DNA of 64,000 nt from contig CM102283.1 in assembly GCA_046563655.1 (NCBI GenBank), positions 1,674,001 through 1,738,000 of the forward strand, written 5' to 3'. Position 1 is the first letter of the stretch. Every line of letters starts with the position of its first letter. A program made the position numbers and the translations under genes. This document shows, piece after piece, positions 11,728 to 59,236 of this stretch. The notes under the pieces were generated by a model. It made no database searches. It was not told the origin of the DNA and saw only the letters and a list, made by a program, of their open reading frames with translations. This DNA is from Yuukianura sp. NJ FZ-2021. Lineage: Eukaryota.

Positions 11728-14700
11728 ATGGAAGACGCAGACTACTTTGACGAAATAGAAGCTGCAAGTTCTTCTGGAGGTCACAGGAATAGACGAAGTA
11801 ACTCACCAGCAGGTCAAGGGCCACCACCTACTTACGAATCACTTCTACGCTCGGATGATAGTGATGGAGACGATTTAGGTGAAGCTGAATTGGGAGACAG
11901 TGGACTACCCAAAACAGTTCTACGATTCGTCAATCCATCAATTTCACCAGACAAGAATAAGCGAAGTAGTAAAGGAGAAGTGGAGGAAATTACTTCAGAG
12001 AGTCCGGAAGATGAAGACGACGAGTACTTCGGGTCATCACGGTTTGTAACTCCGACTTCAATTTTTGACATTTAATCGTTTCATCGTTACTCGAAATTGT
12101 TGTTTTCACTTTAACAGGAAGAGGGATAGGAAAAGATCAAACACAAGACCACCAATTCTTCAACATTTGGACCAAATTGCTGTTGCACGTCACAAACAAA
12201 TTGAAAAGAACAATGTCGATGGAGTCACAATCGTCAAGGGCTCAAATATTACCCAGAAGATTCGCAAGACTGCTGCAAAGGTACAGTTTGTTAACGTTAA
12301 TAGTTAACTTTAATGAAGTTAAAGCAAGGCGCACGTTAATCAGAATCAAGTGTTTTCGTTTATCTGAATAAAGGTGCACAGTTCAATTCCAGTCGTATTT
12401 CGCCAAAAAGGAGCCGGAGAATACAAAATTCAGGTTTTTGTCTGTTTCATGTTTCTTACCGTTGTGTTTCTGGTGGGATCCATTTACATAATTCATGAAG
12501 AGAGAGAATTACAGGTAAATACCAGTTTTAGCAACAGAAGTACGGTTAATAGCCGTAACAGTAACTAAAATATTTTTCATAAAATTGGTTTGTTTTCCTT
12601 CCCAGAAAGCCTACTTTGACCGTATCCGCTTTGCCGCCAAGGACCGGCGAATTCGCGTGTCAAACTTGAAAGGAAAAGAGGTTCTGTCAGGAATTTTAGG
12701 AATGAGTCTAACAGCCAAAGATCACGCTTGGGAATGTTTAGAAGAAAACAGGAAATCTCCTACTGGAACTTGCCTCGAATGGATGAACATTGCTCGTCTA
12801 CACTTTCGAATCTCAAATCCTCGGAAGGATTGGGATCCTCTTCAACATGATATGCAATGTTACGAAATCCTTTGGGAAGGACTCAATTCCAATTTCATTC
12901 CAAAAGATTGTTACTACATTACTGAACAACGTGGATTTACTTTTTACGGTGGCGGAGAATTGACCTCCAGTCCATGGCCACTTCATCGAACGTCAATTCC
13001 AGTGTCTCCATTTATCACCGGGCAGAAAATTGACACTGCCACGCAGTTTCAATTTGGCCAAAATCTTCGGCCGTACTTTGTTGCCTCTCCTGGAGCTGCC
13101 ATTGAAGTATCTCGCTCAACTCCACTTCATATTTCAATCAACGAGAATGACAATGGAATGATGTGTTTCATTGCCAAAGCAGATTCATTTGCATTTCCAA
13201 ATCACCCGCCTCCCACAACGCTCAACTACACCCTCTGTACTGGGGAAAGTGTCAAGGACGTTTGGAATCAGCTGGCTGACAAGGACATTTGGAACGGCTT
13301 GAGAGAATTCAAAGAAGATGTGCTGGCTGCCGATGCTTTAGCGGAGTCGCCTACATGGAAATTAGTTCCGGAAATTATCGGCGGAAGGTTAAATGAAGGA
13401 GCTTTACTAAATCACACAGATCATATCGCAGAACTGGAACTTTCCGGAGGATTTCTACTTCTGGACGAGTCTTGGCAAAAGACAATTGGTGACCTTGAGT
13501 TTGACTTGGACCGATTTCCCAACATGGGTGAAATTGTTAACATAACAAGACGAAGAGGATTCAAAATTGCACTTACCATTCAACCCTACTTTTCACTCAC
13601 TTCGACCAATTATGTTCGTGGAGCCGAAAAAGCAATTTGGGTCAAGCAGTACATTCCGGGGTCAAATGGACTCGGACCACCAGCCGTAACGATTTTCAAA
13701 GGCCAAAGTGTAGTTATGCTGGACATAACGCGGAAGGTAGCTCGTGCTTGGATACATCGGAAACTGAGTGACGTCATTAAGAAGTATAACATAGAAGCAC
13801 TTTATATTGACTTTGGATCTATGCAAGGTTGGTAAGCCAGAAGATTGTTCTTTCTCTTTCTAAAACAGGTTGTTCGATAACTCGGTTTTTACGATTTTAA
13901 GATTTTCCGAGATACTACGACTTTGCTGAACCGATTTTTTCGCCGGACGAGTACAAAGAAATTTTTATGAGAAGTATCAAGAGTTTAAGCGGTGTTTCCG
14001 TTTATGCCATTGGAACTACAAGTGCCATCAAACTACCAAAGTTACCAACATTCGTTACGATGAGTCCAACACCTTCGTCTTGGAATGGACTGCAATCAGT
14101 GATTCCAAATGTACTGAGTCTTGGAATCGCTGGATTTCCATTCATAACTCCTGGAGCAATCGGTGGTGACTTTCCAGCGCTGGAGTGGACCGAAGCAAAA
14201 CCAGTCAGCAGTTCTTCAGATAACTCCAAACTAACTACCGACCGGGCTTTCGCCATCCTGGACAGCACTAACGTAACAATTGAAAAAAATCCCGCTATTT
14301 TTGAAAACGCGAACGCAACAGCTGATCCGGGAGTACCCATGCCCGAAAACACATCGCAGTTAGCTGACTTCGAAACGGAAGATGTCAACTACGAACTGGA
14401 TTCAAAACTGGATCGGAATCTTTACATTCGCTGGCTGCAACTGGCCCATTTCCTGCCAGTAGTCCAATACACTCATCTTCCAAGTGAATACGACAGGGAG
14501 CTGGTTGAACTGGCGCAAAAATTCAAAATGCTTCGAAAGAACAAACTACTTATCTACATCAAGGGCGCGATTGAAGAAGCTCTGACCACTGGACTTCCAA
14601 TTATTCGCCCACTCTGGATGAGTGATCCTACGGATACCAATTGCTTGAAAGTTTGGGACGAGTATACGATTGGTGGAGACGTTCTCGTGGCGCCAGTTTT

Positions 14701-14860
14701 AACTTCGAACTCAACCGAACGGGATATTTACTTGCCCAAAGGAAGATGGCGGGACGAGAAGGACGGAAGTAGTACAAAAGGAGAGCGCTGGATTCATCAC
14801 TATCGAGTCAACATGCAACAAGTTGCGTACTTTACCAAGTTGAAGGATCCCACTGCCTAA
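11728..14860 (+). CDS. MYORG-like GH31 family type II membrane protein, probably non-catalytic
   Basis: Exons approx. 11728-12041, 12118-12280, 12374-12513, 12606-13827, 13902-14860; acidic N-tail, one TM (VFVCFMFLTVVFLVGSIYII), GH31 motifs GDLEFDLDRFP, LYIRWLQLAHFLP, PIIRPLW, VLVAPV, DIYLPKGRW. Confidence 0.85.
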
Positions 14861-18610: not shown

Positions 18611-19795
18611 TAAGTAGCGAAAGTATGAGCTACTTTATGTTTTTCCCCGAGTCTGTCTGTCTGTCTGTCTGTCCGTCCGTCCGTCCGTCTGTCCGTCCGT
18701 CTGCTGGTCAAGCTACCTCTGGAACCGCTGGACCGATTTTCAATCTGTTTTCACAGATGAACTTGACATGGTCTGGGGGTAAACAATCGGTACCCGGTTT
18801 GACCGGAAGTTGACCCCTTAAGGGTCAAAAGTCAAGGTCAAGTACATTTATGACAGAAATCGGAAAAATGACCTTTACAAAAGTTGTTCATCTCATTGAA
18901 CTGAACAACTTTTGTATAGGTGACCTTGACCTTTGACCTGGGGTTCTGGAGATATAGACGTTAGAAGTTGCAAAATGGCGTCGCTCATGGAACTCGCGTC
19001 TATAACTCCAGAACCACTGGACCGATTTTCAATCTGTTCACCGTGGCTCTTCACATGTTCCAGGGGTGTCTAATCAGTGTCCAGCTTGACCGGAAGTTGT
19101 CCAGGTCCGGGTCAAAGGTCAAGGTCAAATACATTTTTGACCGAAATCGGGAAAATGACCCTTACAAAAGTTGTTTACCTCATCGAGACGAACAACTTTT
19201 GTATAGGTGACCTTGACCTTTGACCTGGAGTTCTGGAGATATAGACCTTAGAAGTTGTATAATGGCGTCGTTCATGATATTCGCGTCTATAACTCCAGAA
19301 GCACTGGAGCGATTTTCAATCTGCTTTCACAGTTGCACTTCACATGTTCCAATGGTGTTTAATCGGTGTCCAGCTTGACCGGAAGTTGTCCAGGCCCGGA
19401 TCAAAGGTCAAGGTCAAGTACTTTTTTTGACGGAATCAAATAATGACCTCTACAAAAGTTGTTTATCTCATTGTGGTGAACAACTTTTGTGAAGGTGACC
19501 TTGACCTTTGACCTACGGTTCCAGAGATACTGACAATTGAAGTTGCAAAATGGCGCCCCTCGTCCTACTCAGAAAGTATGACCTACTTTGTGTTTTCCTC
19601 CGAGTCTGTCTGTCTGCCCGTCTGTCTGTCTGCACTATAACTAACTATACCTCCGACACCACTGGACCGATTTGCAATCTGGCTTGCAAATCAGTTTATC
19701 ATAGCCTGGGGGTGATTAATACGGCTCCGGTTTGACCGGAAGTCGACAATTTCCGGGTTGTCACTAGCTTCCTTTCGCTACTTACGTACGGCGTT
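18611..19795 (+). mobile_element. Helentron-associated non-autonomous element (HINE/DINE-1-like) nested in the LINE
   Basis: 13 bp subterminal inverted repeats taagtagcgaaag (18611) / ctttcgctactta (19772-19784); 5' hairpin aagtagc...gctactt; (CTGT/CCGT)n microsatellite; central tandem array; no TSD seen. Confidence 0.75.
18715..19750 (+). repeat. About 288 bp tandem repeat, three full units plus a partial
   Basis: ctggaccgattttcaatctg-type word recurs near 18729, 19017, 19304 and 19662; units share ttgaccggaagt, ggtcaaaggtcaaggtcaa and aaaagttgt...acaactttt. Confidence 0.85.
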
Positions 19796-20390
19796 TACAA
19801 CGGTTTATTATGACGTAGCATTTTTTAATTACCAAGTCAATATGTTTGTCCCATTTCAGATCCTTTTGTAATAGTAATCCCAAACTTTTGATTTCTTCCG
19901 AAGACTCAATCAAATAGCCATTCACCAATATTTCAAAATTGCCAAAAATCTCCAACTGTTTTTTACTTCCAAAAATAAGGACTTTAGTTTTGTCACTATT
20001 TATTACTAAATAGTTTTCATCAACCCAATCAGTCACCCTTTGTAATTCAGAATTTACACCTTCTCTTACTGCCGTTTTTTCATTCCACTCTCCATTAAAC
20101 ATCAGATTTGTATCATCCACAAAAATTTGTGGCCTGGATATCAATAATACTTTTTCTAAATCATTTATGTAAAAAGTGAAGAAAATCGGTCCCAACACAC
20201 TTCCTTGAATCAAACCTGTTAAATTATCCAACTCTTCAGATTTAGTGTCACCAATCTGTACAAACTGTTTTCTGTCTGAGAAATAGCTCCGTAACCAAAA
20301 GTCGGATACTTTAAATTGTTCTTTCAGTTTTTTAAGAAAGTTTTCTCTATGTACTGTTGGAAAAGCATTTTTAGGTCTATGCTGACCATT

Positions 20391-20815
20391 TGTAAGGAAG
20401 AAGTCAACAACCTCTAATTTTCTCATGTTAGATTTCTTTTGTCTTTGAACTTTGCAAATTGTAAAGTTAGTCTAAAAATAGTCATTGTCATTTTCTAAGA
20501 ACAACGTAATCCTCACATTGTTAGCATATTCATTTACGCTGGAGTTACTCGTAACTCCTGACTTCCGCCTCACTGGGCCCTATAAAAGGACCCAGCCCAC
20601 CTTTACAAATCATCATTCTGTTTTCTTGACTCTGGCCGCTTGGACAGAGTTCAACTTTACTACTCGCGGTTTGACCTCTGCGAGGTCAAACAGCATTTTC
20701 ATTTTTCCTTAAACTTTGAATAAAAAGTTAAAATTCTACCTTCCACCAAGGAAGGAAAACAAAACTTTGTAGTGTTTCTCGTTTATTTTAGGCCTGAAAG
20801 GCCTTTTTCACTACA
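20391..20815 (+). repeat. 5' LTR (425 bp)
   Basis: Near-identical to 23474-23900 (a 2 bp indel and one substitution seen near the start); TATAAAA at 20581, AATAAA at 20719. Confidence 0.93.
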
Positions 20816-23473: not shown

Positions 23474-23900
23474 TGTAAGGAAGTCAAGTCAACAACCTTT
23501 AATTTTCTCATGTTAGATTTCTTTTGTCTTTGAACTTTGCAAATTGTAAAGTTAGTCTAAAAATAGTCATTGTCATTTTCTAAGAACAACGTAATCCTCA
23601 CATTGTTAGCATATTCATTTACGCTGGAGTTACTCGTAACTCCTGACTTCCGCCTCACTGGGCCCTATAAAAGGACCCAGCCCACCTTTACAAATCATCA
23701 TTCTGTTTTCTTGACTCTGGCCGCTTGGACAGAGTTCAACTTTACTACTCGCGGTTTGACCTCTGCGAGGTCAAACAGCATTTTCATTTTTCCTTAAACT
23801 TTGAATAAAAAGTTAAAATTCTACCTTCCACCAAGGAAGGAAAACAAAACTTTGTAGTGTTTCTCGTTTATTTTAGGCCTGAAAGGCCTTTTTCACTACA
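23474..23900 (+). repeat. 3' LTR (427 bp)
   Basis: Direct repeat of 20391-20815, preceded by PPT and followed by TSD catt. Confidence 0.93.
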
Positions 23901-25651
23901 CATTAAACAAACTTTACCCAAATCCAGTTGTTTTTTTATGTTGTCCACAGTGTATATCATAGCCTGTTCAGTCGAATGATTTTTTCGACAGCCAAACTGA
24001 TTGACACTTAAAGACAAATTGTTATTTTTTAAGTGATCCAAAAATTTTTGCACATAAAGTTTTTCCAGTAAAATCAAAAGAAAATGCGAAATTCCAATCG
24101 GACGAAAATCTTTAAAATTTCTTGCATCTTTAATTTTTGGGATGGGACATATTCTTGTTTTTTTTAATAATTTCGGTAGTTCTCCGCTTCCAAAACTCAA
24201 GTTGCAAAAATCTAACGTAACCTGAAATTGCACACCAAGTAGCTAGTATAGCAACAAGCTTTGATTATTGAATTTGAACGAAAGTTTTCATTTGTTAAAG
24301 AAAAATAGTGTGTGCATGTATTGAAATAAGAATCCCAGTTAATTTTTCTTAAAATGTAAGTCACGGTTTGACAAATGATTGCATTCACGCTTGACGTTCA
24401 CTGCAAATTGTACACTAGCAGGATTACACAGACGCCTACAATAATTGGTTGTGCATTTGCACAATAACTAGTGCATAGACGCTAACAATGATACATTATT
24501 CATGTTTTTGAACAGGTTGTAAACTAACAATAAGCTTCTTTAAAATGTTAGTTGCAAGTTGACAGTATTATCTACAATGTTTGAATTTGTACGTGCAACT
24601 ACGTCACGTTCAACGTAGTGAATTATTCCAAATCTAATATAACAAGGTCGAAGTGAGCGAATTGTCTTGCGCATTCCAACTACCTGTCGATACTTCACTG
24701 CTTGGCTATGTATTGCTTCCGATGAGTTTTTGGTAACAGTAACGACATCAGAAAGCAATAAATTTAAAAATATTTGTGCTATAAGTATAAGGAAACAAAA
24801 GATAATGCCTACAGATCTAATACCAAGACGCAGTGCAACGGCAAATCCAATTGAACAAAACCATACTGCAGCATATATATAAGCACCCAGTAAGAATGTT
24901 ACAAAGTCGCTCAAAATTGTCATCAAAATGTAAATGGCTCTGTAGCGATGAACTGCTTTGAGTCCCTTCCACTTTTCAAAGGATTCCTGCGAGAGCCAAT
25001 GAATTACTGTGTTCTTGCACTGAAGAAAGCACAAGCCGTATGGCACCCATTTGATCATAGTTATATATGTGTAAAATATGCCAAAAATACTGGCGAAAGT
25101 TGTCATTATGAGTGGCACATATTTCGAACACTTAAAATATACTTGTACAGAATTCCAGCTGCACATGGCTTCAAATAATGGCAACGCTGTGTAGTACGCA
25201 ACTAGCGGAACCTCAATCGCCATGAAGGCGGCAAGCATCAGCATTGCGTTGGAGTAGAATTTTATTAGACGCAGGTTCAGTACACGTTGCGACACCTCGA
25301 ACGAATTTTCTGCAAGTTAAAACTACGTTGTCATCATTAGGTTATCAAATAGTTTTGCTATATTTTTAAAAGTTCCGACATGGTTTTGTTGGAACTCAAT
25401 GTAATATACAGTAGCTCTGTTCTCTCCTAAAGTGAACTTCAGTACAGTAGAGCCTCTAATTGGGGAATACTTTTACATGGTACGATACGTTCAACTTTTT
25501 GAATTTTGGCGGAAATGACAACATTTGAATGAATACTGCAGTAGTTACTTGGTTACACCCCTTCAATTACTTGAAACTTCCCGGGACATTTACACAATCT
25601 TTCAACCCACGCCGTCCAATCAAATTAAGTTTGCGAATTGGAGTTTCATTG

Positions 25652-26524: not shown

Positions 26525-27495
26525 ACGCAAACACCAACATAATCAGCACAGCCGAAATATCTGAAAATAAAGTATAAAAAGAAATTTGGCGGTAAAATTT
26601 TCGTGGTTTAAAAATAAACTCTTTTCGTTTTGGACACCAAATATATGGAACTTGGTACGTGTGATGTGCAATTTTGATAGCCTTTATTGAATATTTTGCG
26701 ATCTCTTCTGCTGTCGCCATTTTAATAAGCTCCTTAGTATACAATTTATTTTTGTAAGCCATTTTTTTATAACTAAAATGTAAATCAGCGGAATAAAAGT
26801 AAAGAAAAAGGAGTCAAATTTTTGTGGAGTATTAACGTGCAAGAAGGTAAAGCCTAACTAACGTAACAACCTAACCAACCAACCAACCAACCCTAACCAT
26901 TTGGCGTTTAAAAATTCAGCGGCTAAAAGCAACTGAAAGAATATATTTTCCGTTCTACAAGATTAAGTAGTCTAAAAAGCATTTTAAAAACTTTTTAAAG
27001 CTTACTGACGTCTTAATTCATTATGTTTGCTACCACTTTATTCTTTTAAGTGGTTAAATTTCTTATTTATACCATCTCTTCTACAAGCAAACCTCCTACT
27101 CCTGAATTTATTATGCTAACTGGAGAACACAAAAGGTGACTTGCATTGAAAATTCTTACATGCTACAACTCGAAAAAACGGAAGTGAAGTCCCCCCTTTT
27201 CCCTTCATGTCCAAACAGCTCAAAAAACACCAAATGCAAAGAAGCGTGGTCTCCCACCAAATTTGTTTTTTGCTTAAAACGACTGAAAATGACTCAAAAC
27301 GTAACAAAAAGTGAACAGGAGAAAAGTTGGGCCAACGAGTATCTTTTCTGTATCCGAACAAGTCTGTGTTCAGTTTAAAATTTAACAAAAAAATCCGCTC
27401 AAAAACGCCAAAGTCAAAAAACATGTGGTGCAGGCGTAGTTTAGCGTTATAATTAACTTTTTTTAGTATTTCAGAAAAGCTTCGAGAGTAAGAAT

Positions 27496-29520
27496 TTATT
27501 TTCTGATTACTAAATATTCGGAAATGTTGAAGATGCACATGGATATAACTGCTATAGAGAGGACAACAAATGCAGATCCAAGGTCATTTATGGTTAAGGG
27601 AGACGCCGATAGCCCATGAATCTAGCATTACAAAAAAAGACATAAAAAATGTTTGAGTATCAACAAAATATTTTTTGAATGTGAATTTGAGTTTTTGAAA
27701 ACCTTGAGTTCACCGCCAACATCGTCATCACACTCCGTTTGGTCATTGAACCATTTGTTTTCCAGATCAGGCAAAACTCCTTGTTCGTTCAAATCCAAAA
27801 TGGCCAGATCAATTTCCTTTCTGTCACATTATAATTAACTTTACGTTAATTAACTTTAATTAATTTTTTAAATGTTAACTATTTAGCTGTAAAAATGTTT
27901 ACTGTGGGATTTTAGGTGAATTTTTAGGCATGGCCACTCCGTAGCCCTTTTTTGGTCCAAACAATTGCGGGGCAACGGTTAGGTCGCAGGGCTTGCGTAC
28001 TGTTGCAAATTTAGCAGCAAGTGACTCCATTAGAAAGGCAAAAGATCCTTTTAAAAAAAAAACAAAAATTTCAAAAAAAAATCAAAATTTTGAAATGTCG
28101 AAATTTGTTTTCTTATACCGTTAGAACTGCGAACTTTTCTGATGCCTTGGTCGTACGACCCCAAAAGCCCTTTCCGCTCCAACATTTTTCGGTACATGAA
28201 TTCAATCAAGTCATCCGACATTGAGGACTAAGATTAAACAAAAACTTAAGTTAATCATGACTTTTAGTTAATTAATTGATGTTAAGTTAATCAACTGATG
28301 ATTAATTTTACTCTGAAGTAGTTGAATGTAGATCCGGAGCGTAGTATTCCGTACTCTACTTCCGTTTGATTCGCAAGTTCTTGAATTGAATTGATTTGGA
28401 GCGGCGTTGAAAACGTTCCGGAACGGAGAAGGAGATTGGCCATTTTTGCCGCCAAGAAATTTGTGGACAAAATGGCAAGAACGAAAAGCAGAAAAATTAT
28501 GAATCCGAATTGCAAACATTGCACCGACACGCAACTAAAAAATGCGTTTTTCGAAAAAAAAAATTGAATAAAAATTTTTGAGGAAACTTTTTTTTAAAAA
28601 AGTTGGACTTACGTTTTGACCCATTTGGGATAGATGTGGATAACTCTTTGCGTGATGTATTTGTTGAGAATGTGAAGCATGAAAAGGGTGAGTACCGTAA
28701 TGGTTCCAATAATGAGCCAAAGTCCGGTTGAGAATTGACCTCCGACAGAAGTGTCAATATCAGTAGACGTCGTCGTGACCTCTAACCCCTGCGGTTTCTT
28801 CATCAGAATGCCCAACCGTGCTTGCATATATGGCAGCGAAAAGTCAACAGCGTCTAAACGACTTTTACTTATTGTCAAATCAGCAATGGCAAAATCTGCT
28901 TCCTTTAAAAAAAATTAAATTCACTTAATAATTTTATGAGTTGCTTTTATTTTTGTGGCTGTTTTCTTAAATTTAATTTGTTTTTATTGTTGCAATTGTC
29001 TAAATGAGCGTTTACCCCAGAAATTAAGGCGCCAATCATCCCGTTCCAGGTTCCATTTGTAACGTCTCGTACGCCGTAATTTCCTTCAGGCTCTACTTTT
29101 AGAATGTCTGAAATCATTTGAGGTTAACTCCAATTAAATCGCTTAAATATAAACTGTTAGCTAACGTAACCTAAGCTAAATAAATTACAATCTGAGTTTA
29201 ATTACAATTTCGGTTTAGTTTTTGAAACAGTTTGTCCATGAAATCCTTTGAGAATCCTTCGTAACGATCATTTCCTTCCATAAGTGGATCATCCACACGC
29301 ATTAGGAATGGATCGGCCTCAAATTGTTGGAATAATTATATAAAACTATACATAAATTAATTCTGTTTTGAGTACATTAACAGTTTAAAAAATAAGTTAA
29401 ATAGGTGTTTACCAAAACACTTATAACAACCAGCGGTGGACCGTCAGTAGTTACAATAACAGTAGATCCGAGTAGCACCAATGATATTGCGAAAATCCAT
29501 TTGCAATTTTGTAAAGACAT
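27496..29520 (-). CDS. Ionotropic glutamate receptor-like protein without ATD and without the M2 pore loop
   Basis: Nine exons splice in frame: signal peptide, S1 (NDRYEGFSKD, WNGMIGAL, ADFAIADLTISKSRLDAVDFSLPY), M1, M3-like helix, S2 (YGILRSGSTFNYF, FAFLMES, KPCDL, GYGVAMPKNSP, LENKWF), M4, TAA at 27496-27498. Confidence 0.85.
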
Positions 29521-37300: not shown

Positions 37301-40300
37301 TACACTTGTAAGGCTGGTTATGGTCCGAATCCTGACTACGGCTACACCTCTTTCGACACATTCGGATCAGCTCTCCTGTCTGCTTTTCGGTTGATGACAC
37401 AGGATTACTGGGAACGACTCTACCAACAGGTATTCTTCTTAATTAATTAGTTTATTTAATTGAGATTAAATATAAGTTAGTTTATTTTTTCTAATTTTAA
37501 CAGGTTCTGCGAGCTTCTGGTCCATGGCACATGCTGTTCTTCATTTTCATCATTTTCCTTGGCTCCTTTTACTTGGTCAACCTGATTTTGGCCATTGTCG
37601 CCATGTCTTACGATGAACTCCAAAAGAAATCAGAGGAAGAGGAGCTGGCCAATGCTGCTGAATTGGAGAACATGCGCGTAGGAATTGGATTTTGAATTCT
37701 ACAGTTTCATTCAAAGGTGAAACCGAGTGATCTGCTTTTGTTTTCAGGCGGAAGAGGCGACTGCGCAGCAGAAATTGGCTGACGACGCAGCGGAGTTCCA
37801 TCGGAGAGAGGCTGGAGGCGGAGACAGTCCGACTGTGAAGACTCCGTCGGAGTACTCTTGTCGCAGTTACGAAGGTTGGGTGGGTGATGCTGGTGACAAC
37901 AAAGAACTCAAGTCCATGCGATCCGAAGTGTCGCTTCCAAGAGACGAATATGCTAAAGGGGCGGGTATGAAAAGCAGAAAAGCGAGTTTGAGTTTACCCG
38001 GAAGTCCGTTTAACGTCAGAAGAGGATCCAGGGGATCTCATATGAATTACAAGAAGAGTCGAAATGGGGGAGACAAGAAGCCGCTTGTGCTGTCGACATA
38101 CATGGATGCACAGGAGCATCTTCCATATGCAGACGACTCAACAGCAGCCACGCCCATGTCGGAAGAAAACGGGACAATCCTCATACAGAACTTCACACAC
38201 AGTAAGAACATGACAAAAAAATGAGCAACACACACTTTTTTTTTCAAAAAACTTTGAAAAATCTATTCTGAAAATTCATTTTTTTTAAAAAACAGCTATG
38301 GGCAGTCGACATTCCTCGTATAACTCACATGCCTCCCGCTTTTCGTACACTTCACATGGAGATTTAATGGGAAAAAACTTTGGATTTGCTCTGGGAGTTC
38401 CGGTGACGAAAGAAAGTCAACTCCGCATGCGCTCAAAGGCGATGCACTACGACGCAGAAAAGATGGACATTCCGCATGACTATGTAGGTTGACCTTTGAC
38501 CTGACCTTGCCAAATTGGTTCCATGCCATTGTTTCAAATTGTTGCCAAATTTCCTAACCTAACAACATTTTGCCATGCATCACATCATATTTTGTTGTTT
38601 CGACAGGAAAGCTATGATGACATGCACAAACACAAAGATCGATACTACGGCGACGGACCAATGCGTGGCGGTGGCGGAATGGACCTCAAAGATGTCATGG
38701 TTTTAAGTGAAATCGTCGAGCAAGCTGGAGGGCGTGGCAGTAAAATCAGCGATCGTTTGGGTAAGTCAAATTTTATTTTTGTCAGTCGAGGGCAAAGGTC
38801 ACATAGCACAATATTCTGTACTCGTCGATTTGAATTATACGCAGTCAATTTGAAATTTTCAAATTTTGAAAGAATTTTCAAAAAAATTGTTTTTGTGTTC
38901 AATTGCTCACTTTCACAATTCACGCTTTCCGTCACATAAATCACTGGAATTTGCACTTCACTTGAACCAGGTGTAGTCACAGCTTACCACTTTACGACAG
39001 GTCAGTTTTTAACAGTGGTGTTAAATTCAGTTTCTTCACCTAATGTTTGTTTTTATCGGTGATTATATTGATTTATTTGATTTTCTTAGATGAAGAGGAA
39101 CAAGGAAATCAATTGAAGATGAAAATCATCGACGGATGTTTTCGCTGCATTGACATTTTCTGCGTCTGGGACTGGGGATTTCCGTGGAACTTTTTGCAGA
39201 AATGTGTCTCCTTTATTGTTTTCGATCCTTTTGCTGAGCTTTTCATTACTCTTGCTATTGGTATTAATACGCTCTTCATGGCCATGGACTACCACGGACT
39301 GGACAAAAACCCAACTATGCAGTCCACCCTCAAAATTGGCAACAAGGTGAGTAAAAACTGATAAATGTTAGTTGATCTTGTTGTGTTGACCTAATTGTTG
39401 TTGTGCTTTTAGGTGTTTTCGACAATTTTTGCTGTGGAGGCTGCCATGAAGTTGGTTGCGATGAGTCCCAAGTATTACTTTCAAGTTGGCTGGAACATTT
39501 TTGACTTCATCATTGTCACTCTGTCACTTCTGGAAATGGCCTTCGAAGATGCAAATCTTCCTGGAATTTCGGCACTCAGAAGTTTCAGATTGGTAAGCTC
39601 GACTCCTGGAATCAAAAAACTAGGCGGGGGAATTTGAAATTTTGAAAATATTTTGGAATTTTGCTTTTTTGTATTTAGCTTCGTGTTTTCAAGTTGGCCA
39701 AGTCCTGGCCCACTCTCAACCTTCTGATCAGCATCATGGGCAAAACAATGGGAGCACTTGGAAATCTCGTCTTTGTCCTCATCATTATCATCTTCATCTT
39801 CGCTGTGATGGGAATGCAACTCTTTTCCAAAAATTATTACGGTCAGATGTGTTCAAAACAAACAAATTTTGAAAATGTGGGATTCTCAACTAATATTTTT
39901 TGGTTTAGACAAAGTTTTAATGTTCAAATACGAACAAATGCCGCGCTGGAACTTCACTGATTTCTGGCATTCCTTCATGATCATCTTCCGCGTTCTGTGT
40001 GGCGAGTGGATCGAGTCAATGTGGGACTGTGTTTTAGTTTCTGGATGGGTTTGCATTCCGTTCTTCTTGGCGACCGTCATCATTGGAAACTTGGTTGTGC
40101 TGAATCTGTTTCTGGCTTTGCTGCTCAGCAGCTTCGGAGCTTCGAATCTTTCGTCTCCGACAGCCGACGCTGAAACGAACAAATTGGCAGAAGCTTTCAA
40201 CCGAATCGGGAGGTTCATCCGCTGGGTCAAAAATTTGATACGGAAGATGTTTCGCTGCATTTACAAAATTTTAACATGTTGGAAGCGCGCCAAAAATCAA

Positions 40301-43300
40301 ATTGGAGACGGAGTAAACGGACCAGACGGAGTTCAAGTCGAACTGACTCAACAGTCGATGAAAATGTCGCAAGACAACCCGGACGAACCAAGGGAAAAAG
40401 GCTTGTTTGATACTGAAGCCGGCGGAGTTGGAATGGCACTCCAAGGTAAATTACAAGGTTCCTTGACAACCGAATTGTATTTCCTACAACAGGTTGTGCA
40501 ATAACTCAGGATTTTCAGAAATCTTGCTTCAAACAACTTTGAGCACCAATCCCATTTAGATTACATGCAAAACATTACTATGGAAAGAAGGCAGATTTGC
40601 TACTTTCAAACAAATTTTAAAACTTCGAGTTATTGGACACAACCTGGCGTAGAAAGGTTCTCTTTTTCTTTACGAACCTTGGCAAATTATTTTGAACTAA
40701 ATTTCATAAACCTAAAAAAATGAAAATTTTGGAAAAACCAGAAATGAAATTTTGAATACTTTCAGCCGCGGGTCAATTCAAGACCAAGCTGGCCCAGAAG
40801 GCCAAACTAGTGATGGCTACCAACAAAGTTTTGAACAGTCTGCAACAAATGGCTGCAGAACGCGCCGGTGCGGAATCGACTAATGCCAAAGTTGACATCG
40901 AAGCGACCAAAATGGAGGACCCAGACAACATGAGCTTGCGATCCTACGGTTCGCACAACTACTCCAACGTGAACTGTCCACAAGTCAAAGAGGATGGCGG
41001 CAGAGCACTTTCAACTGAAACGTTTGAAGAGGAAATGAGTAAATTAGATGGCGCTGGAGAATACTACGATGATGACGATGAAGAAAAGCGAGATTTTGAA
41101 AAGGAAGAAGTTGATTGGATAGAAGAAGTTGAAGGATGTGAAGAAGAAGAAGTTAAACCAATTCACTTTCATCATGGACCACCCAAGGAAGAGGAGGAAG
41201 ACTACCCGCATGATTGTTGTCCACCGAGATTCTACGAGCGATTTCCGATTTTCCTGGTGGACGAAACGCCGTTCGGTGTTGGTTGGGCCAACTTGAGACT
41301 CAAAACGTTTCAGCTCATTGAAAACAAATACTTTGAAACGGCCGTCATCATCATGATTCTACTGTCGTCCATGGCTTTGGTAAGCTGAAATATTTTGCAA
41401 ACGTTACTGGTTTCCAGAAACGTTTTGCAAACGTTTCAAACGAGTGCCGACGTAAAGACACGTATTTTCCCAATTTTCAGAAACGTTTCGAACTCGTTAT
41501 AAGTAGTTGTATCCACGTTCCAGAAACTTTTTATAAACGTTTGGAAACGTTTTATAAACCCTCCGAGGACGTTAAATAAACGTTTCAAAAATGTCGACAA
41601 CGTTTTATGAGCTTTTCAAAAAAAAAGTTCTTTAAACGCTCTGAAAACGTCTTATAAACTCTCCAAAAACGTCTTATAAACGCTTCGAAAACGTCAAAAA
41701 AAATTTGCTCCCGGTTTCTAACACAAAGTTAAGCTTAATATGTTGTAAATACGTTTTTTTTGTCTGAAATTCAAAAATTGCGATGTTTTTGTTTTCAGGC
41801 TCTAGAAGACGTCCATTTGCAAAACAATCCGATACTCCAAGACGTTTTGTACTACATGGACCGAATCTTTACCGTCGTGTTTGCAATAGAAATGTTGATC
41901 AAGTGGCTGGCCCTTGGTTTTCAAAATTATTTCACAAATGCTTGGTGCTGGTTGGATTTTTTCATTGTCATGCTGTCGCTCATCAATTTTGTTGCTGGAA
42001 TTTTAGGATTTGGTGGAATTCAGGTAAGATTTCAATAAAAGATTCAAAGAAATACGAAAAACAAGTCTCCCAAAAAAATTATTTACAAAAACTTTGTTTT
42101 TCACAGGCTTTCAAAACTATGCGAACTCTGCGTGCCCTTCGACCTCTCCGTGCCATGTCCCGAATGCAGGGCATGCGGGTAAGTTTGAATTTCAGAATTT
42201 CAAAATCGGAGGAATTTGGCGCCAAAATGTTTGAACTTTTTGCAGGTCGTGGTGAACGCGCTTGTGCAAGCTATCCCGTCCATCTTCAATGTGTTGCTGG
42301 TGTGTCTCATCTTTTGGTTGATCTTTGCCATCATGGGAGTCCAGCTATTCAATGGAAAATACTACAAGTGTCTTGACAAAAATCTTACAGCTCCGTTTAA
42401 TGTAATCGACTACCGAGTAATTGGAAACAAATCGGAATGTATTGCTGCCAATTACACTTGGGAAAATTCGGCCATGAACTTTGACCATGTCGGGAAAGCC
42501 TATTTGAGTCTATTTCAAGTAGCGACTTTCAAAGGATGGATCCAAATTATGAACGATGCGACGGACTCACGTGGGGTTAGACACGATAACAATTTTTCTA
42601 AACACGGGTTTTTAAAAAATATTTTCAAAACAAATTTTTTTTTGTTTTTTTTTAGGAGGACCAACAACCTTATCGAGAGTGGAGTTTTGTCATGTACGTG
42701 TACTTTGTGATCTTCATAATTTTCGGTTCCTTTTTCACTCTGAACTTGTTTATCGGCGTGATCATTGACAATTTCAATGAACAAAAGAAAAAGGCGGGAG
42801 GATCTTTGGAGATGTTCATGACTGACGATCAGAAGAAGTACTACAACGCCATGAAGAAAATGGGATCCAAGAAACCAATGAAAGCCATTCCCAGGCCACG
42901 GGTCAGTTTTTCAAAAAACAAATTTTGAAAATTCAAAACAACTTTTGCAAACTTTTTGACAGTGGAGACCACAAGCACTCGTGTTTGAAATGGTGACAAA
43001 CACGAAATTTGACATGATCATCATGCTGTTTATTGGACTCAATATGCTGACGATGACCATGGATCACTACAATCAGGCTCAGGTATGTCAAAAATATTTT
43101 CCAATATTACACGATGTTAAAGCATTGCGTATTGCTAAATTGTGTTTCACTGGAATGTTAAAGTTACTTTGGGTATGGCTGCAACGTTGTCACATTTGAC
43201 TGTAAAAGCTTGTCCGCGAGGGATGTGTTTTTAAAAATCTTTACCTTCATACGTTCTACTAACGAGTGTAGTAATGACAGACAGACAGACAAATTCTTAA

Positions 43301-45291
43301 TGTACTATATCTTTACGCAGTTGTTCATTTGTTGTATAGGGTATCACTGGAATGCTAAGGTTAGGTTTCGTACTGCTGTAACGTTGCCACATTTGACTGT
43401 AAACGCTAGTCCACGAGGGATGTGTTTTTGAAAATCTTTGCCTTCATGAATATTACTGAAGAGTATAGTAACTACAGACACAGAGAAACATTCTTATTAC
43501 ATTATATGTTCAAGCAGTTGTCCATTCGTTGTTTTGGATTTCACTGGAACCTGATCTTAGTTTTGGCTATTGCAGCAACGTTGCCATATTTACATGACAG
43601 AGACTATTTATTTTTATACAAATTGTTGCCTTCATAAATTTTATTACTAATGCAGAAGTGCAGCGAAAATTCAGAATCCATTAAGGTTTAATGACGATTC
43701 ATTTTTTTCTTTCCAGATCTGGGAAGACGTTCTCGCTTATTTGAACACATTTTTCATCGTCATCTTCAGTTCCGAATGTGCACTGAAAGTAAGTCAAGCT
43801 AGCTGGAAATCTCAACCTTAAAAATTCTCGCGAATTTGTAAAAAGAAAACGTATTTGACGAATGCGAATTTTTTGCAGATCTTTGCTCTGCGTTACCACT
43901 ACTTCGTGGAGCCGTGGAATTTGTTTGACTTTGTCGTTGTCATTTTCTCCATCTTTTCCTTGGCTCTGTCTGACTTGATTGAAACGTATTTTGTGTCTCC
44001 TACTCTGTTGCGAGTTGTGCGCGTGGCCAAGGTGGGCAGAGTCCTGCGCCTCGTCAAGGGGGCAAAGGGCATTCGGACGCTGCTCTTTGCACTGGCAATG
44101 TCGCTCCCAGCACTCTTCAACATTTGTCTCCTCCTCTTCCTCATCATGTTCATCTTCGCAATATTCGGAATGTCATTCTTCATGTCGGTTGAACTCACTG
44201 GAGGCTTGGACGAAGTCTACAACTTTCAGACGTTCGGACAATCCATGATTCTTCTATTCCAAATGTCAACTTCTGCTGGTAAAGTTCATTTTTAAAAACT
44301 TTCAAAATGGAATATTCAAAAACAAAATTTTTTTTTAAATGTGTAACTTAATTAGGTACTAAATGATGAATTTTTTTTTCTATAGGATGGGATGGCGTTC
44401 TGGATGGAATTATCAAAGTGGATGACAAATGTGTTGAAGCTGACAACGAACATGGAAGAGCCGGAACTTGTGGAAATCCAACCGTTGGAGTAGCGTTTCT
44501 CCTTTCGTATCTTGTCATCAGTTTTCTCATTGGTATGCAGCGGTTTGAAAAATTTGGAAAAATTGAAAATGAAATTTTGACTTTTTTTTGAAGTTATCAA
44601 CATGTACATTGCCGTGATTTTGGAAAACTACTCTCAAGCGACAGAGGAGGTGCAGGAGGGACTGACTGACGATGACTATGACATGTACTATGAAATTTGG
44701 GCGCAGTTTGACCCCGAGGGAACGCAGTACATTCGATACGATCAACTCTCGGACTTTTTGGACATTTTGGAACCTCCGTTACAGATACACAAGCCCAACA
44801 AATACAAGATCATCACAATGGACATCCCCATTTGCAAAGGTACAAACAAATTCTAAAGTATTTTTTCAAAATAAATTTCAGAAAAATTTATACCTCGTGA
44901 TTTTTTTGAAGATGACATGATGCACTGTGCAGACATTTTGAATGCCCTGACCAAGGACTTCTTTGCCCGAAAAGGAAATGCTGTAGATGAATCCATCGAG
45001 ATGGGAGACGAAAACAAGGCAGAACGTCCTGGCTATATGATGGTGTCATCCACTTTGTGGCGACAACGTGAAGACTACTGCGCAAGACTCATCCAACTTG
45101 CATGGCGAAAACATAAACATCTTCGGGCCATTTCCGAAAGTGGGCGTGACTCGAATGAAATTGAAGACAAGACGAACAATTCACTTCTGCTAGATGATCC
45201 CACTACAACTGATGACCTTGACAGTCACAAAGTCACTCTGCTTCCTTCTTCTCGTTCTCCTTCCGTGTCTTCACGAATGACCGATGTCTAA
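34398..45291 (+). CDS. para: Voltage-gated sodium channel alpha subunit (para/Nav1), complete
   Basis: ATG 34398 (FRPFTRESL); four domains with S4 R-x-x repeats; filter D-E-K-A (TQDYWE, CGEWIE, TFKGWI, TSAGWD); MFMT inactivation motif; IQ motif IQLAWRKH; stop 45291. Confidence 0.97.
40454..40681. mobile_element. MITE family A copy in a Nav intron
   Basis: caaggttc...gaaccttg termini, same subterminal IR as 4673-4983 (opposite orientation); flanks gtaaatta/gcaaatta (7/8 TSD). Confidence 0.75.
43146..43595. repeat. Diverged about 197 bp tandem repeat (2.3 copies) in a Nav intron
   Basis: tcactggaa...aacgttg.ca.attt recurs at about 43147, 43345, 43541; cgagggatgtgttttt.aaaatcttt twice. Confidence 0.75.
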
Positions 45292-45771
45292 ATTTTCAAA
45301 ATCTCTAAAAATTCAAATCAGCAAAGTGTTTTAAAGTTCTAAAAAGCAGGACCAATTTCGACAATCATCAGGTATACTGTCCATGTTGTCCAAAAACACC
45401 AATTATGCGCTTCAAAATTGTTGTTCAAAAAATTTCGCTTCAAATTCGACTTTCAAATTGGAACAATTTTGCTAAACAATTGTAGTATTAACACTGTGAT
45501 CAACGAATTAAGCCATTTGTGAGCTTACGCTTTAAACTATCAATTTACAAAATTTTCAGCGCCTCAATGTGAAATAAATGTGATATGTCAATGTTTTGCA
45601 GCTTCAACTTACAACAAAACATGACAGCTCGATTTCATTGTTGTTTCTGCGCAGTGCAATTGTTTTAGGTTGCGCAGAAGACAAAATCAATATAATGAAA
45701 GGATTTTGCACTTTACAAGGAATCTTTTGTGCTTCAAAGACGCAATGCGCAAAACTAGCATACTTTTTTAG

Positions 45772-46825
45772 CAACAACTGGCTTTTTCTTCATCAGCATA
45801 CGACTTTGACGCACCAGCATGCATAATCGGAAACAAATCATCAATTCTGGTCAATTTCTAAAAAAAATGAAAAGCTTTCGGAATTTTTTTTTGAAATTTG
45901 AGCAATCTGTTTTAACGTTTTTAAATAGGAGGCGAATGTTTCCGAGGATAGAATCAAGTGGGCTCAAGAAGGAGTCGACGCTCACAACAAATATCGCAAG
46001 AAACATGGTTCCGAATATTTAAAAACGAATGCGGTAAAATGAAAAATGATGGTGAAATTTGAAAAGGTTTGTCGTAAATTTCAGGCACTCCTCCATTGGT
46101 GTTGAACCCCGAGGTGAGTTTCTATTGAACTCAATGTGAAGAAAGCGCCACCTTCCAAATTCACAAGTTATTGACTTACTTTGACTAAATTCGATTACTT
46201 TGATGAAGAATCGATTGCTTTCAGATGTGCAAGAGTAGTCAGTGGACAGTCAATCATAACGCAGGAGTGAAAAAAATGGTGTATACTCAAGTGATTGATG
46301 GGATTGGAGCGGGTGGGATGAAATGCGGTGAGTGTTTGTGTGGGCCTGCACAATCACTGATAACAGCGAGTCTGGCCACAGACGTTTTGTACGACGAAGT
46401 CAGAAACTACGACTTTGGTAAACACAAATCAAAGAATGGAAAAGAGGTTGGTCACTTCGAACAAGTCGTCTGGAAAGGTCAAGTTATTACCAAACTAATA
46501 AATATTACAAATATCGACAAAGAAAAAGTTCTGAAAAGTTGAAAAGTTTAAATCCCTGTTCGCTTGCGTTTAGCTTCCAAGGAAATGTGCATGGCTTACG
46601 CAAAAACAGAAGATGGCCAATACTTTATTGCAGCTCATTATCATCTGCCAGGTCGGTGACGATACGTTTTTCTAAGATTTTGAATTTTTCAAGGTTGAAT
46701 TTCCTTTTTGAACAGCATTTTATGGGTCACACGCTGAGAACGTCTTGAACTTGAATTCAGCTAACCACGACCACTTCAAAATTGGAATCAATTTGATTAT
46801 GATTCTTTGTATACATTTTTTCTAA
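45772..46825 (+). CDS. CAP/SCP (GAPR-1-like) copy 1; no ATG/signal start found, possibly 5'-truncated
   Basis: VDAHNKYRKKHG, YDEVRNYDF, GHFEQVVWK, hydrophobic tail; homology to other copies starts mid signal peptide after an in-frame TAG. Confidence 0.7.
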
Positions 46826-53803: not shown

Positions 53804-54903
53804 ATGGGTTTTGGCGTGGCAGTTTTGTTAGTTGGAGTCTGGATCCTGGGTCAACCACTGGATTTTGCAGCAGCATATGAGTTCGACGCTCTTGCATGCA
53901 TAATCGGAAACAACTCCATTCAGGTCAGTTTTCCAACATTTCTTGAAAGGTTTTTTTTAAAGATCAATCTGTTCTAACGTGTTTGAACAGGAAGCGGATG
54001 TTGCTCCTGATGTGCTCAAGTGGGCTCAAGAAGGGGTCGACGCTCACAACAAACGTCGAAAGAAACATGGTTCCAAATATTTTCAAAAATTAAAAAAAAA
54101 CGGAGAAATGAATGCCTTTGAAAAAGTTTTTGGCGAATTTCAGGCACTCCTCCTTTGGTGTTGAACCAGAAGGTGAGTTTCTATTGAACTCAATGTGAAG
54201 AAAGCGCCACATTCCAAACTCTTCTGAACTTGTTGAATTACTTTGACAAAAATCGATCACTAAGAATCGGTTACTTTCAGATGTGCAGGAGTAGTCAGTG
54301 GACAGCCAATTACAACGCAAAAACGACAATTACGACACTTATGATTCATACTGAAGAGATCGAGTGGATTGGAACAGATGGGATGAAATGCGGTGAAAAT
54401 TTGATGGCGAGCGGTAAAGGCGGAGTAGTGCCAGCAGATCAGACTGTACAAGCTTGGTACCACGAAATCAGTCGCTACGACTTTGCTAAAAACGCGGCAA
54501 AGCCTGGCCAAGTCGTCGGTCACTTCCTAAATGTCGTCTGGAAAGGTCATGTGATTAAAGAACTAACAAATTTAAAAAAAAAGGTCAAAAAAGTTGGTTG
54601 AAAAGGTTAAATTACTAAATTTCTTGTCCGATTGTTTAGCAACCAAGGAAATGTGTATGGTCTACGCACAAGCAAAAACTGGCGAACACTTTTATGTAGC
54701 TCAATACTTTCCCCCCGGTCGGTGATCAGACGTTTTTTTATGGTTTTGGAATTACGTTTCTGAAAAGTGAACTTTGTTTTTGAACAGGAGGCTACCCTGC
54801 TGAGGTGTATGCAGAGAACGTATTGAACCCTAACAATGCTAACAACGACCACTGCAAAACCGGAGTCATTTTGATGTTGATTCTTTGTGTACAGTTTTTC
54901 TAA
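53804..54903 (+). CDS. CAP/SCP copy 5
   Basis: Six exons; CGENLM, WYHEISRYDF, GHFLNVVWK. Confidence 0.88.
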
Positions 54904-55421: not shown

Positions 55422-56057
55422 TCAGAAATACATTTGTGGCGAATCGGGACAAAGCTCTATGCTCAACTTACGCAACTCTTCCTCCAACTTTTGATAATTC
55501 TGCACTTTTATTACGCGGTCTTGTCGCCCTAAAGTCATTTCCAAAAGGCTATCCTCTTCAATAAGTTGGCTAATTCCGACGGCAAAGACTTGGATTCCCT
55601 GGTCACGTGCCTCTTGTGGCTCATTTTCCAACGGATCCGAGGGAACGCCATCCGTTATGATGACCATCACTTGTGGAACCCCCTCTCGTCTCTTGCTCGC
55701 CATTTCATAGATGGCAGCACTCATTGCTTTACCTGTTTGCGTGTCGTGCTTCAGATGACGCGTTGCTCTGATGATTGCAGAAACCTCGACTGGTGTTAAG
55801 TAGGTATCCAGTTCAATGCCTATCATGACGTCACCGCTGTAGTAGAGGTACGCTATTCTGCTGTTGTCAACAAAGGCTGAAGCTAACTTGTCAACAAAGC
55901 CCAGTGCGAGAGGAAAGTCGTATTTGCTGATGCTTTCAGAAACATCCAACACAATTCCGAGATCACTTAACGTTGAAACATTTGTTAGGTGATGGTGGAG
56001 TTGTGGTGGGCTCTTCGGTGGTCGTTGTTCTTGGGGGCCTAGTATTATATTTACCAT
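55422..56057 (-). CDS. Stand-alone von Willebrand factor A domain ORF, partial duplicate of the 3' end of the NIDO-vWA gene
   Basis: 211 aa uninterrupted ORF; MIDAS DVSES...T...ITDG; collinear with about 60946-61500 including 3' UTR words acaatggtttctgcat..gaggaaatcagaaa. Confidence 0.7.
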   Translation of the reverse strand: MVNIILGPQEQRPPKSPPQLHHHLTNVSTLSDLGIVLDVSESISKYDFPLALGFVDKLASAFVDNSRIAYLYYSGDVMIGIELDTYLTPVEVSAIIRATRHLKHDTQTGKAMSAAIYEMASKRREGVPQVMVIITDGVPSDPLENEPQEARDQGIQVFAVGISQLIEEDSLLEMTLGRQDRVIKVQNYQKLEEELRKLSIELCPDSPQMYF

Positions 56058-56259
56058 GCTTAAACTACTTTTTTTATATAAAAAAAACGAACTCTTTCAA
56101 AATTCATGCTACTCTTCTAAAATTCTAAAAATTTTGAAATTCCATGAAAAATATTTCTGAATGTGGGAAACTTGCCAAAACATTTGCAACATTTTTCGAA
56201 TTGGCGATGGAATTTATTAGTATTTTATTTACCTTGAAATTTACTAATGTAATTTTTAC

Positions 56260-58129: not shown

Positions 58130-59236
58130 ATGGGTTTCGGCGTGGCAGTTTTGTTAGTTGGAATCTGCGTCCTTGGGCAACCGCTGGGTTTTGCTTCAGC
58201 AGAATTCGATGCTCTTGACTGCATTTTGTTAAACGGAACAGTTCTTGTCAGTTTTAAAAATTCTATAAAGTTCAAAATTATGATACGGTTAAGGTACACG
58301 ATATTTTGAAATTTTTGAACAGGAGGGAGAGTTTCCTTCGGACGGAGACAAGGTCAAGTGGGCAAAAGAAGGAGTCGAGGGTCACAACAAATTGCGGAGG
58401 AAACATGGTTAAAAAAAAGTTTCAAAATCTTCACGAAAAAAAAATCAAAAATGATTTTCCAAGTTGGAATTTTCTGTAATCGATTTCAGGCGTTCCTGAT
58501 TTGGTGTACAACCCCCAGGTGAGTTTTGGTTGAAGTAAGGATGGAGAAGACGTGATGTAACCGCCTCTCTTAAAATTCTTCCTAAATGAATGGATTTGTG
58601 ATGACTAAAGTAATCGATTACTTTCAGTTGTGCAGAAGTGCTCAGTGGCTAACCGATAAGATTGCGGCTACCGGGGAATGTAAACATACTTCAAAGTTCG
58701 ATGGGATTGAAAAATATGGAGAATTGGAATGTGGCGAATGTTGGTACGTGGGTGGTGGACCGATTCTCGCGAGTAAAGCCGTAGAAGCTTGGTACTCGGA
58801 AATCGAACGCTACGACTTTGAAAAGCACGCTCCAAAGGACAAAGACAAAGCAGTTGGTCACTTCACACAAGTCGTCTGGAAAGGTCAAGTTATTAAAAAA
58901 AACTATCAAATGAGAAAAAAATGGTTTTTACAAAATTCTTGTCCGTTTTTCCAGAAACCAAAGAAGCGTGCATGACCTACACAATAACAAACGGCAGCAC
59001 ATACGCTATTGTGGCTCATTACTTTCCACCAGGTTGGTGACCAAACGATTTTTCTTCATCTTTTTTTAGATTTTGAATTTCTTTAAAGTTTGAACATTTG
59101 AATTTCCTTTTCAAAAGGAAATTGGGCAGGGACTGAGGCAGAGGCAGCGAACGTATTGAATCCTAACAATGCTAACAACGGCCACTTCAAAACCGGAACC
59201 ATTTTGATTATGACTCTTTGTGTACAATTTTTGTAA
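58130..59236 (+). CDS. CAP/SCP copy 7 (most divergent)
   Basis: GHNKLRRKHG, ECGECW, WYSEIERYDF, GHFTQVVWK, IVAHYFPPGNW, hydrophobic tail. Confidence 0.88.

Follow-up and report, generated by a model that had tools for sequence, protein, structure and literature searches.

An intact glutamate-receptor-type gene without the M2 pore loop in Yuukianura sp., and a transcribed copepod family of the same architecture

The DNA analyzed here is a stretch of 64,000 nucleotides from Yuukianura sp. NJ FZ-2021 (GenBank assembly GCA_046563655.1, contig CM102283.1, positions 1,674,001 to 1,738,000 of the forward strand). This whole stretch is called the window in the following, and positions are counted from its first letter. 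On its minus strand, from 29520 to 27496, lies a gene of the ionotropic glutamate receptor (iGluR) superfamily, whose nine exons splice to an open frame of 440 codons (coding sequence 1323 nt, corresponding to 440 amino acids and the stop). The encoded protein consists, in this order, of a signal peptide, the ligand-binding segment S1, the membrane helices M1 and M3, the second ligand-binding segment S2 and the membrane helix M4; it has neither an amino-terminal domain (ATD) nor the M2 pore loop. We rebuilt this gene model independently from the sequence, checked it by script, and arrived at the same model as an earlier reading of the same DNA (the original prediction), which had proposed nine exons, about 440 amino acids and the order signal peptide, S1, M1, M3-like, S2 and M4. 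GT..AG borders are present at all eight introns, which measure 95, 98, 113, 78, 84, 71, 82 and 81 bp in exon order. The parts of the gene are as follows.

Exon 1, 29413..29520, minus strand: start codon and signal peptide, 36 codons, with hydrophobic residues 5-27; donor GT at 29412.
Exon 2, 29206..29317, minus strand: start of S1 (ligand-binding lobe); its acceptor (...tttgag) is the weakest-looking of the eight.
Exon 3, 29016..29107, minus strand: S1 with the conserved WNGM motif, the tryptophan of which is shared with 30 of the 31 comparison sequences described below.
Exon 4, 28613..28902, minus strand: end of S1 with the ligand-contacting threonine and arginine, the linker from S1 to M1, M1 itself and the greater part of the short cytoplasmic spacer.
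Intron 4, 28535..28612, minus strand: 78 bp, phase 2, at most 5 residues from the aligned site of the absent M2 and too short to accommodate an exon.
Exon 5, 28312..28534, minus strand: last part of the spacer, M3 (its gate motif degenerate), the M3-S2 linker, which is longer than usual, and the beginning of S2 with Gly-Ser-Thr.
Exon 6, 28119..28227, minus strand: S2.
Exon 7, 27903..28047, minus strand: S2 with the ligand-contacting glutamate and the first S2 cysteine.
Exon 8, 27703..27820, minus strand: last part of S2, which contains the KW motif and the second of the two S2 cysteines.
Exon 9, 27496..27621, minus strand: linker from S2 to M4, M4 itself, about 10 residues of cytoplasmic tail and the stop codon TAA at 27498-27496.
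AATAAA hexamer, 27495..27500, minus strand: overlaps the stop codon and may serve as a polyadenylation signal.

The gene is an intact, ATD-less member of the iGluR family and not a product of chance similarity. Exon 4 alone matches the Pfam family PF10613 (Lig_chan-Glu_bd) with an E-value of 1.2e-9 and 38.7 bits (cut-off 30), and exon 2 alone matches Lig_chan-Glu_bd with an E-value of 1.7e-4 and 22.1 bits, which is below the cut-off; exons 5 and 7 were also searched singly in Pfam and hit no family. When compared to PDB sequences, residues 2-40 of exon 4 align with the final part of S1 in GluA2 (232 distinct sequences, E <= 0.01), and residues 17-74 of exon 5 align with M3 and the first part of S2 in AMPA/kainate receptors (187 distinct sequences, E <= 0.1). 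The spliced protein yields full-length BLASTP matches to iGluR-type proteins at E-values of 1e-40 to 1e-56. The best of these is the copepod protein P0041 (36% identity, E 2.7e-56), and the overall identity to any relative is 29-36%. A search of the protein collection for longer relatives of exon 4 returned 162 candidates, none of them at E <= 0.001. Of the features that characterize the superfamily, the S1S2 ligand-binding domain (LBD) of periplasmic-binding-protein type, split by membrane segments (Pfam PF10613, PF00060), is present, the M2 segment is missing and the SYTANLAAF motif is degenerate; the ATD (PF01094) of the canonical AMPA, kainate, delta and NMDA receptors is missing as well.

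By hydropathy, the protein has four hydrophobic segments: the signal peptide, M1 at 160-185, a long stretch at 198-237 (M3), and M4 at 407-438. To place these segments in relation to known receptors, the protein was aligned by MAFFT with 31 comparison sequences, of which 16 are short relatives and 15 are further iGluR-type proteins. The interval from the tryptophan in front of M1 to the column of the M3 tyrosine comprises 56 residues, compared to 79-108 residues in 14 canonical iGluRs. The canonical columns for the M1-M2 linker, the M2 pore helix and the Q/R site are empty, and the spacer that is left over aligns with the end of the M2-M3 linker. The original prediction had put only about 25 residues between M1 and the next helix (the string that it gave for this M1-M3 spacer has 23) and had read the gene as one without a pore loop, which the interval counts bear out.

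There is no M2-coding DNA anywhere in the window. A tblastn search of the window with the gene model matched only the gene itself, and when 80 iGluR-type and other proteins were used as queries, 163 of the 170 high-scoring segment pairs (HSPs) fell into this gene and the remaining 7 into an unrelated glycoside hydrolase family 31 (GH31) gene. Thus, tblastn detected no other iGluR-like DNA and no canonical subunit in the 64 kb. Queries with an ATD gave no HSP upstream of the gene, where the signal peptide runs straight into S1. We also considered that M2 might have been missed because it sits on an alternative exon, is joined by non-canonical splicing or falls into a gap of the assembly. The model was made from sequence alone, and the acceptor of exon 2 is weak, both of which are in keeping with such an artifact. 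However, all introns are 113 bp or shorter, and the 78-bp intron 4 has exactly the coordinates given in the original prediction, where it had been judged too small to hide an exon. If it is retained in the frame of exon 4, a TAA follows at once; two of its three frames contain stops, and the third, open, frame is an A/T-rich stretch encoding phenylalanine and lysine. Canonical iGluR queries did not yield an HSP for the M2 region in or near the gene even with a word size of 2 and an E-value of 10, and relatives derived from transcripts show the same gap without any splicing model (see below). We therefore regard an error in the gene model as highly improbable.

In contrast to the pore region, the ligand pocket is complete as far as its contact residues are concerned. 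The S1 threonine and arginine, the S2 Gly-Ser-Thr and the S2 glutamate are kept, as are both S2 cysteines and the tryptophans of the WNGM and KW motifs, and the same holds for nearly all of the 31 comparison sequences. This agrees with the original prediction, in which the motifs LTISKSR, GST and FLMES had been listed as retained. In summary, its structural reading of an intact iGluR gene that has lost M2 and the Q/R region but kept the ligand contacts is in accordance with both the alignment and the interval counts.

The gate is degenerate, and its register is ambiguous. MAFFT places ILSTNFLA.. on SYTANLAA.., which puts a leucine at the position of the gate tyrosine, a column that is occupied by tyrosine in all 31 other sequences. 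In this register, two of the nine SYTANLAAF residues are identical, and not more than four are identical in any register that we tried by eye. The original prediction had read the gate as STNFLAAKM. That the motif is degenerate holds true in either register, but the register it chose differs from that of MAFFT. Its additional statement that the ionotropic receptors (IRs) need SYTANLAAF was too strong, as the pore and gate motifs of IRs are described as divergent in the available text of bioRxiv 10.64898/2026.09.30.755715. The three linkers between the LBD and the transmembrane domain (TMD), S1-M1, M3-S2 and S2-M4, are 46, 30 and 24 residues long, compared to 40, 22 and approximately 17-22 residues in most canonical sequences. 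Conservation is distributed in an unusual way as well. Identity to relatives is 34-40% in S1 and S2 and 17-25% in M1, M3 and M4 (38% in S1 and 36% in S2 when only canonical iGluRs are considered). This is the reverse of canonical iGluRs, in which M3 is the most conserved part with 80%, compared to 46-48% for the LBD.

When 1.84 billion representatives were searched exhaustively by HMMER for relatives of exon 4, only 34 matches at E <= 0.001 were obtained, which include P0013 (418 amino acids) and the scallop protein P0033 (483 amino acids). With P0013 as the query, 42 proteins were found at E <= 1e-10. The best 19 of these 42 (P0013 and P0040-P0057) have a length of 316-432 amino acids and contain the LBD and channel Pfam domains without an ATD, and most of them sit on environmental contigs of mRNA size (1.1-1.8 kb). 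P0041 and P0081-P0083 (424-432 amino acids, annotated 'ORF type: complete') form one cluster, are from the transcriptome of the calanoid copepod Neocalanus flemingeri (EukProt EP00092) and include GFUD01043205; a literature search for 'GFUD01' returned no paper. A scan of a metagenome collection gave five loci, three of which are full-length, and the contigs L001-L003 from this collection carry unbroken open reading frames (ORFs) of 409-429 codons that belong to the same M2-less family. Since the copepod transcripts do not need a splicing model, their lack of M2 is not a splicing artifact; genes of this architecture do exist in copepods and are expressed there. A multi-member, transcribed copepod family that shares this architecture is new here.

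All 16 short relatives in the alignment have a Trp-to-Tyr interval of 49-54 residues, and in the copepod-type proteins the spacer is a short loop rich in lysine and glutamate. Across 18 sequences of the copepod family, 71 columns are invariant, including those of the ligand-contacting arginine, threonine and glutamate. The family keeps the Tyr-x-Ala-x-Leu core of M3, linkers of canonical length (39-44, 21-24 and 17-21 residues) and a canonical M4 with its Gly-x-Phe face. Identity within the family is 59.5% in M3, on a level with the LBD (55-56%) and not above it. The motif RGGGAC in front of M4 is found in the copepod proteins and in several canonical arthropod-type sequences, but not in the window protein.

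Outside of the copepods, the scallop protein P0033 (XP_060083158.1, 'glutamate receptor 4-like', Ylistrum balloti) has 69 residues from Trp to Tyr and no segment resembling a pore helix. It does not have the Ser-Thr contacts in S2, and it groups with lophotrochozoan proteins that possess M2 (Shimodaira-Hasegawa-like approximate likelihood ratio test (SH-aLRT) 98, to which a long-branch warning applies). Judging from its sequence, it may represent an independent loss of M2 or an error in the gene model. As a separate observation, P0005 from the nemertean Lineus longissimus (XP_064648822.1, 989 amino acids) seems to consist of two tandem ATD-less iGluR-like units, each with an M2-like segment and an unusual M3 motif.

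The window protein and the copepod family have much in common. Neither has an ATD, the copepod proteins are of similar length (about 400-430 amino acids), and the signal peptide directly precedes S1. They share a gap of about 30 residues that covers the M1-M2 linker, the pore helix and the Q/R site, and they share the ligand-contacting arginine, threonine, (Ser/Ala)-Thr and glutamate, the two cysteines and a very short cytoplasmic tail. Unlike the family, the window protein has lost the gate tyrosine, does not have RGGGAC, has longer LBD-TMD linkers and sits on a long branch, and its spacer is partly hydrophobic instead of rich in lysine and glutamate. Identity between the two is 39.5% in S1 and 34.3% in S2, but 21% in M1, 17% in the spacer, 25% in M3 and 17% in M4. 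With regard to the gate tyrosine, the linkers and the identity of the membrane helices, the window protein is thus more degenerate than its copepod relatives. A quick IQ-TREE analysis placed it as sister to 16 copepod-type proteins with moderate support (SH-aLRT 87, not starred). A tree constrained to unite it with four kainate-type receptors is worse by 13.4 log-likelihood units, and the approximately unbiased (AU) test does not reject this tree (p 0.181). It is plausible from these comparisons that the loss of M2 is shared with the copepod family by descent. This is favored by the similar gap boundaries and disfavored by the absence of the family motifs and by the fact that the LBD is equally similar to canonical receptors.

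Structure prediction was carried out for the copepod protein P0041. The AlphaFold2 monomer model, built from an alignment of 36 sequences, has a mean predicted local distance difference test (pLDDT) score of 79.3 and contains helices at 159-186 (M1), 197-225 (M3) and 391-425 (M4). M1 and M3 are connected by a low-confidence loop of 10 residues, and there is no re-entrant helix. Foldseek superimposes the model on LBD-TMD chains of GluA2, GluA1, GluA4 and GluK2 with E-values of approximately 1e-35 and TM scores of approximately 0.6. The original prediction had stated that a structure model with a pore helix in the short loop would speak against it; the model has no such helix, although this holds for a relative and not for the window protein itself.

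Taken together, we lean towards the view that the gene encodes a membrane-anchored amino-acid-binding protein that would not form a canonical pore on its own. It is an iGluR-derived protein cut down to a signal peptide, the full S1S2 clamshell and the three membrane helices M1, M3 and M4, which has lost the ATD and the re-entrant M2 pore helix with the tip of the selectivity filter. M2 enters and exits the membrane from the cytoplasmic side, and its loss would therefore leave the topology unchanged, with the LBD still facing outward. S1 and S2 would be outside of the cell, with the spacer and a tail of some 10 residues on the inside; these cytoplasmic parts are too small to accommodate a signaling domain. 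A canonical iGluR pore cannot be completed in its lower half if the pore helix and the filter tip are absent. That the protein does not conduct on its own is favored because M2 is absent, the gate tyrosine has been lost and the linkers through which M3 is pulled are longer. Its ligand at the cell surface is presumably glutamate or a similar alpha-amino acid, and it may serve other subunits as a non-pore partner or modulator, or else work as a binding or decoy protein. The roles suggested in the original prediction, a non-conducting decoy, a dominant-negative or auxiliary subunit, or a non-ionotropic sensor, would be compatible with this anatomy.

Several points weigh against this view. Ligand binding by the window protein is deduced from its residues, and the gene itself is known from genomic sequence. 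The AlphaFold2 model is a monomer of a relative with 36% identity and is silent on whether four M3 helices could line a pore. The conserved gate core, linkers and M4 of the copepod proteins hint that those proteins still work in a channel-like assembly. The terminal branch of the window protein has a length of 2.05, compared to a median of 0.19, and such a very long branch, together with the poorly conserved membrane helices, would also fit a gene nearing decay. Finally, the constraint seen in the copepod family is modest: for L001 and L002, which are from one sample and encode proteins with 82% identity, the Nei-Gojobori method gives a dN of 0.086, a dS of 0.136 and a dN/dS of 0.63, which is modestly below 1 (one-sided Fisher p 0.017) and is based on few substitutions in the only usable pair. 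The regional ratios are 0.56 (S1), 0.71 (M1-loop-M3), 0.96 (S2) and 0.24 (M4). Such values suggest that selection between the recent duplicates is weak or diversifying, as in chemoreceptors rather than in synaptic iGluRs, and there may be diversifying selection on the ligand-binding lobe.

The last two of these points, as well as the purely genomic record of the gene, would also be expected if it were an unexpressed or decaying iGluR duplicate that was left without its M2 exon and has yet to acquire disabling mutations. We consider this distinctly unlikely. All 440 codons are open across the nine exons with canonical splice sites throughout, and every ligand contact that we checked, as well as both disulfide cysteines, is intact in spite of only 29-36% identity to relatives, which is an indirect sign of constraint. 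Conservation of the LBD but not of the TMD is unlike neutral decay. In addition, the same architecture is kept by many diverged, transcribed copepod genes with their 71 invariant columns.

The main alternative is that the protein is still a channel subunit, either because it co-assembles with iGluR or IR subunits that possess a pore loop or because four M3 helices line a pore without a filter. In support of this, M1, M3 and M4 are all kept in an unchanged topology, and in the copepod relatives the M3 core, the linker lengths and the Gly-x-Phe face of M4 are conserved, with M3 as conserved as the LBD. The idea is thus more credible for the copepod proteins. The window protein, however, has lost the gate tyrosine, all three of its linkers are longer by 4-8 residues, its M3 shares only 25% identity with that of the copepod proteins, and no canonical subunit is located nearby in the window. 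Moreover, we did not find an iGluR that conducts without M2 in the literature searched, nor do we know of one. For the window protein we therefore rate a role as a channel subunit as rather unlikely, and retain the non-conducting, amino-acid-binding protein as the preferred explanation.

iGluRs are defined as ligand-gated channels. It is possible, and we propose it only tentatively, that pore-less iGluRs constitute a functional class of their own, either as non-ionotropic amino-acid sensors or as obligate modulatory subunits, which perhaps evolved repeatedly (in copepods, in this animal and possibly in the scallop). A conserved and transcribed pore-less group with a ligand pocket would show that the combination of clamshell and membrane anchor is of use beyond conduction, for example in modulating other subunits, in buffering ligand or in sensing without ion flux. 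Such proteins would also be a natural experiment on the part that M2 plays in assembly, trafficking and gating. Copepods are key marine grazers, and the proteins could matter for amino-acid chemoreception in these animals. The window alone supports a narrower claim, namely one intact gene of the M2-less type.

The remainder of the window contains a number of other genes. On the plus strand, exons of a voltage-gated sodium-channel type are located at 39800-45300, with Ion_trans and Na_trans_assoc on the ORF at 39809-40504 and Ion_trans (E 1.9e-33) at 43822-44295; a gene of this type speaks against a Caenorhabditis-like nematode as the source. The two-exon GH31 (alpha-glucosidase-like) gene mentioned above lies at 12519-14860 (plus strand) and has four database matches, the best of which are 63-65% identical; the source lineage is thus poorly sampled. 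Three similar ORFs on the plus strand (46207-46542, 54188-54601 and 58586-58975) carry a CAP/cysteine-rich secretory motif (...VGHF..VVWKG...), confirmed by Pfam CAP for the third only, and look like a dispersed local gene family. Two ORFs with a VWA domain are found on the minus strand at 55422-56096 and 60946-62913; Pfam VWA (E 8.6e-29) is confirmed on the first only, and the second contains a Pro/Thr-rich tandem repeat, some 350 residues long, in which several frames are open on either strand. Fragments of retroelement reverse transcriptases are present on the minus strand at 19782-20471 and 23868-24242, with RVT_1 on the first (E 2.7e-11). A single open frame of 258 amino acids at 24540-25316 (minus strand), 2.2 kb downstream of the iGluR-like gene, has several hydrophobic segments and no match in Pfam. 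The window also carries Ig and gelsolin genes, and an Rfam search of it gave no match.

Compared to known systems, the window protein shares the S1S2 clamshell, the ligand contacts, the disulfide, M1, M3 and M4 and the topology with AMPA and kainate receptors such as GluA2 and GluK2. Unlike these, it has no ATD, no M2 and no Q/R/N site, its SYTANLAAF motif is degenerate, and its C-terminal tail is minimal. The vertebrate kainate-binding proteins (KBPs), or 'glutamate receptor U1', of frog, chick and goldfish are ATD-less iGluR relatives with a mass of about 45-50 kDa that bind agonist but carry no current alone. KBPs retain M2, however, and the KBP M2 works as a pore once it is transplanted into other subunits. 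The window protein thus resembles them in size and in the loss of the ATD and differs from them in the absence of M2. The cluster nearest to P0013 by language-model features (0.97) is the chordate 'glutamate receptor U1' cluster of the Atlas (461 amino acids), which we regard as a lead only.

Tuning IRs usually do not have one or more of the glutamate-contact residues. The variant IRs of protostomes are mostly ATD-less and fast-evolving, with divergent gate and filter motifs (Croset 2010, PMC2924276, and bioRxiv 10.64898/2026.09.30.755715, in the portions available of both), and the available text of the latter describes the M2 re-entrant loop as kept in IRs. Variant IRs thus keep M2 and usually lose glutamate contacts, whereas the window protein has all of the contacts and no M2. 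By this pattern of residues, it is not a typical IR. The literature searched yielded no account of an M2-less iGluR in the portions available (including PMC2924276, PMC6307864, PMC12226733, PMC5850775 and bioRxiv 10.64898/2026.09.30.755715), supplementary sequence lists aside. According to the available text of Ramos-Vicente 2018 (PMC6307864), sequences with fewer than four conserved SYTANLAAF residues were discarded in that study. Surveys that filter on channel motifs in this way would drop pore-less relatives before they are inspected.

Outside of the superfamily, the proton channel Hv1 and the voltage-sensing phosphatases (VSP) are examples of a sensor domain from a channel superfamily that has been kept although the canonical pore module is absent (PMC4148356, in the part available). 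This is an analogy and not a homology, because the fold is unrelated, the stimulus is different and the outputs of Hv1 and VSP (proton conduction and phosphatase activity) are known. If pore-less iGluRs do form a class of their own, they would be the ligand-gated counterpart of these voltage-sensor-only proteins.

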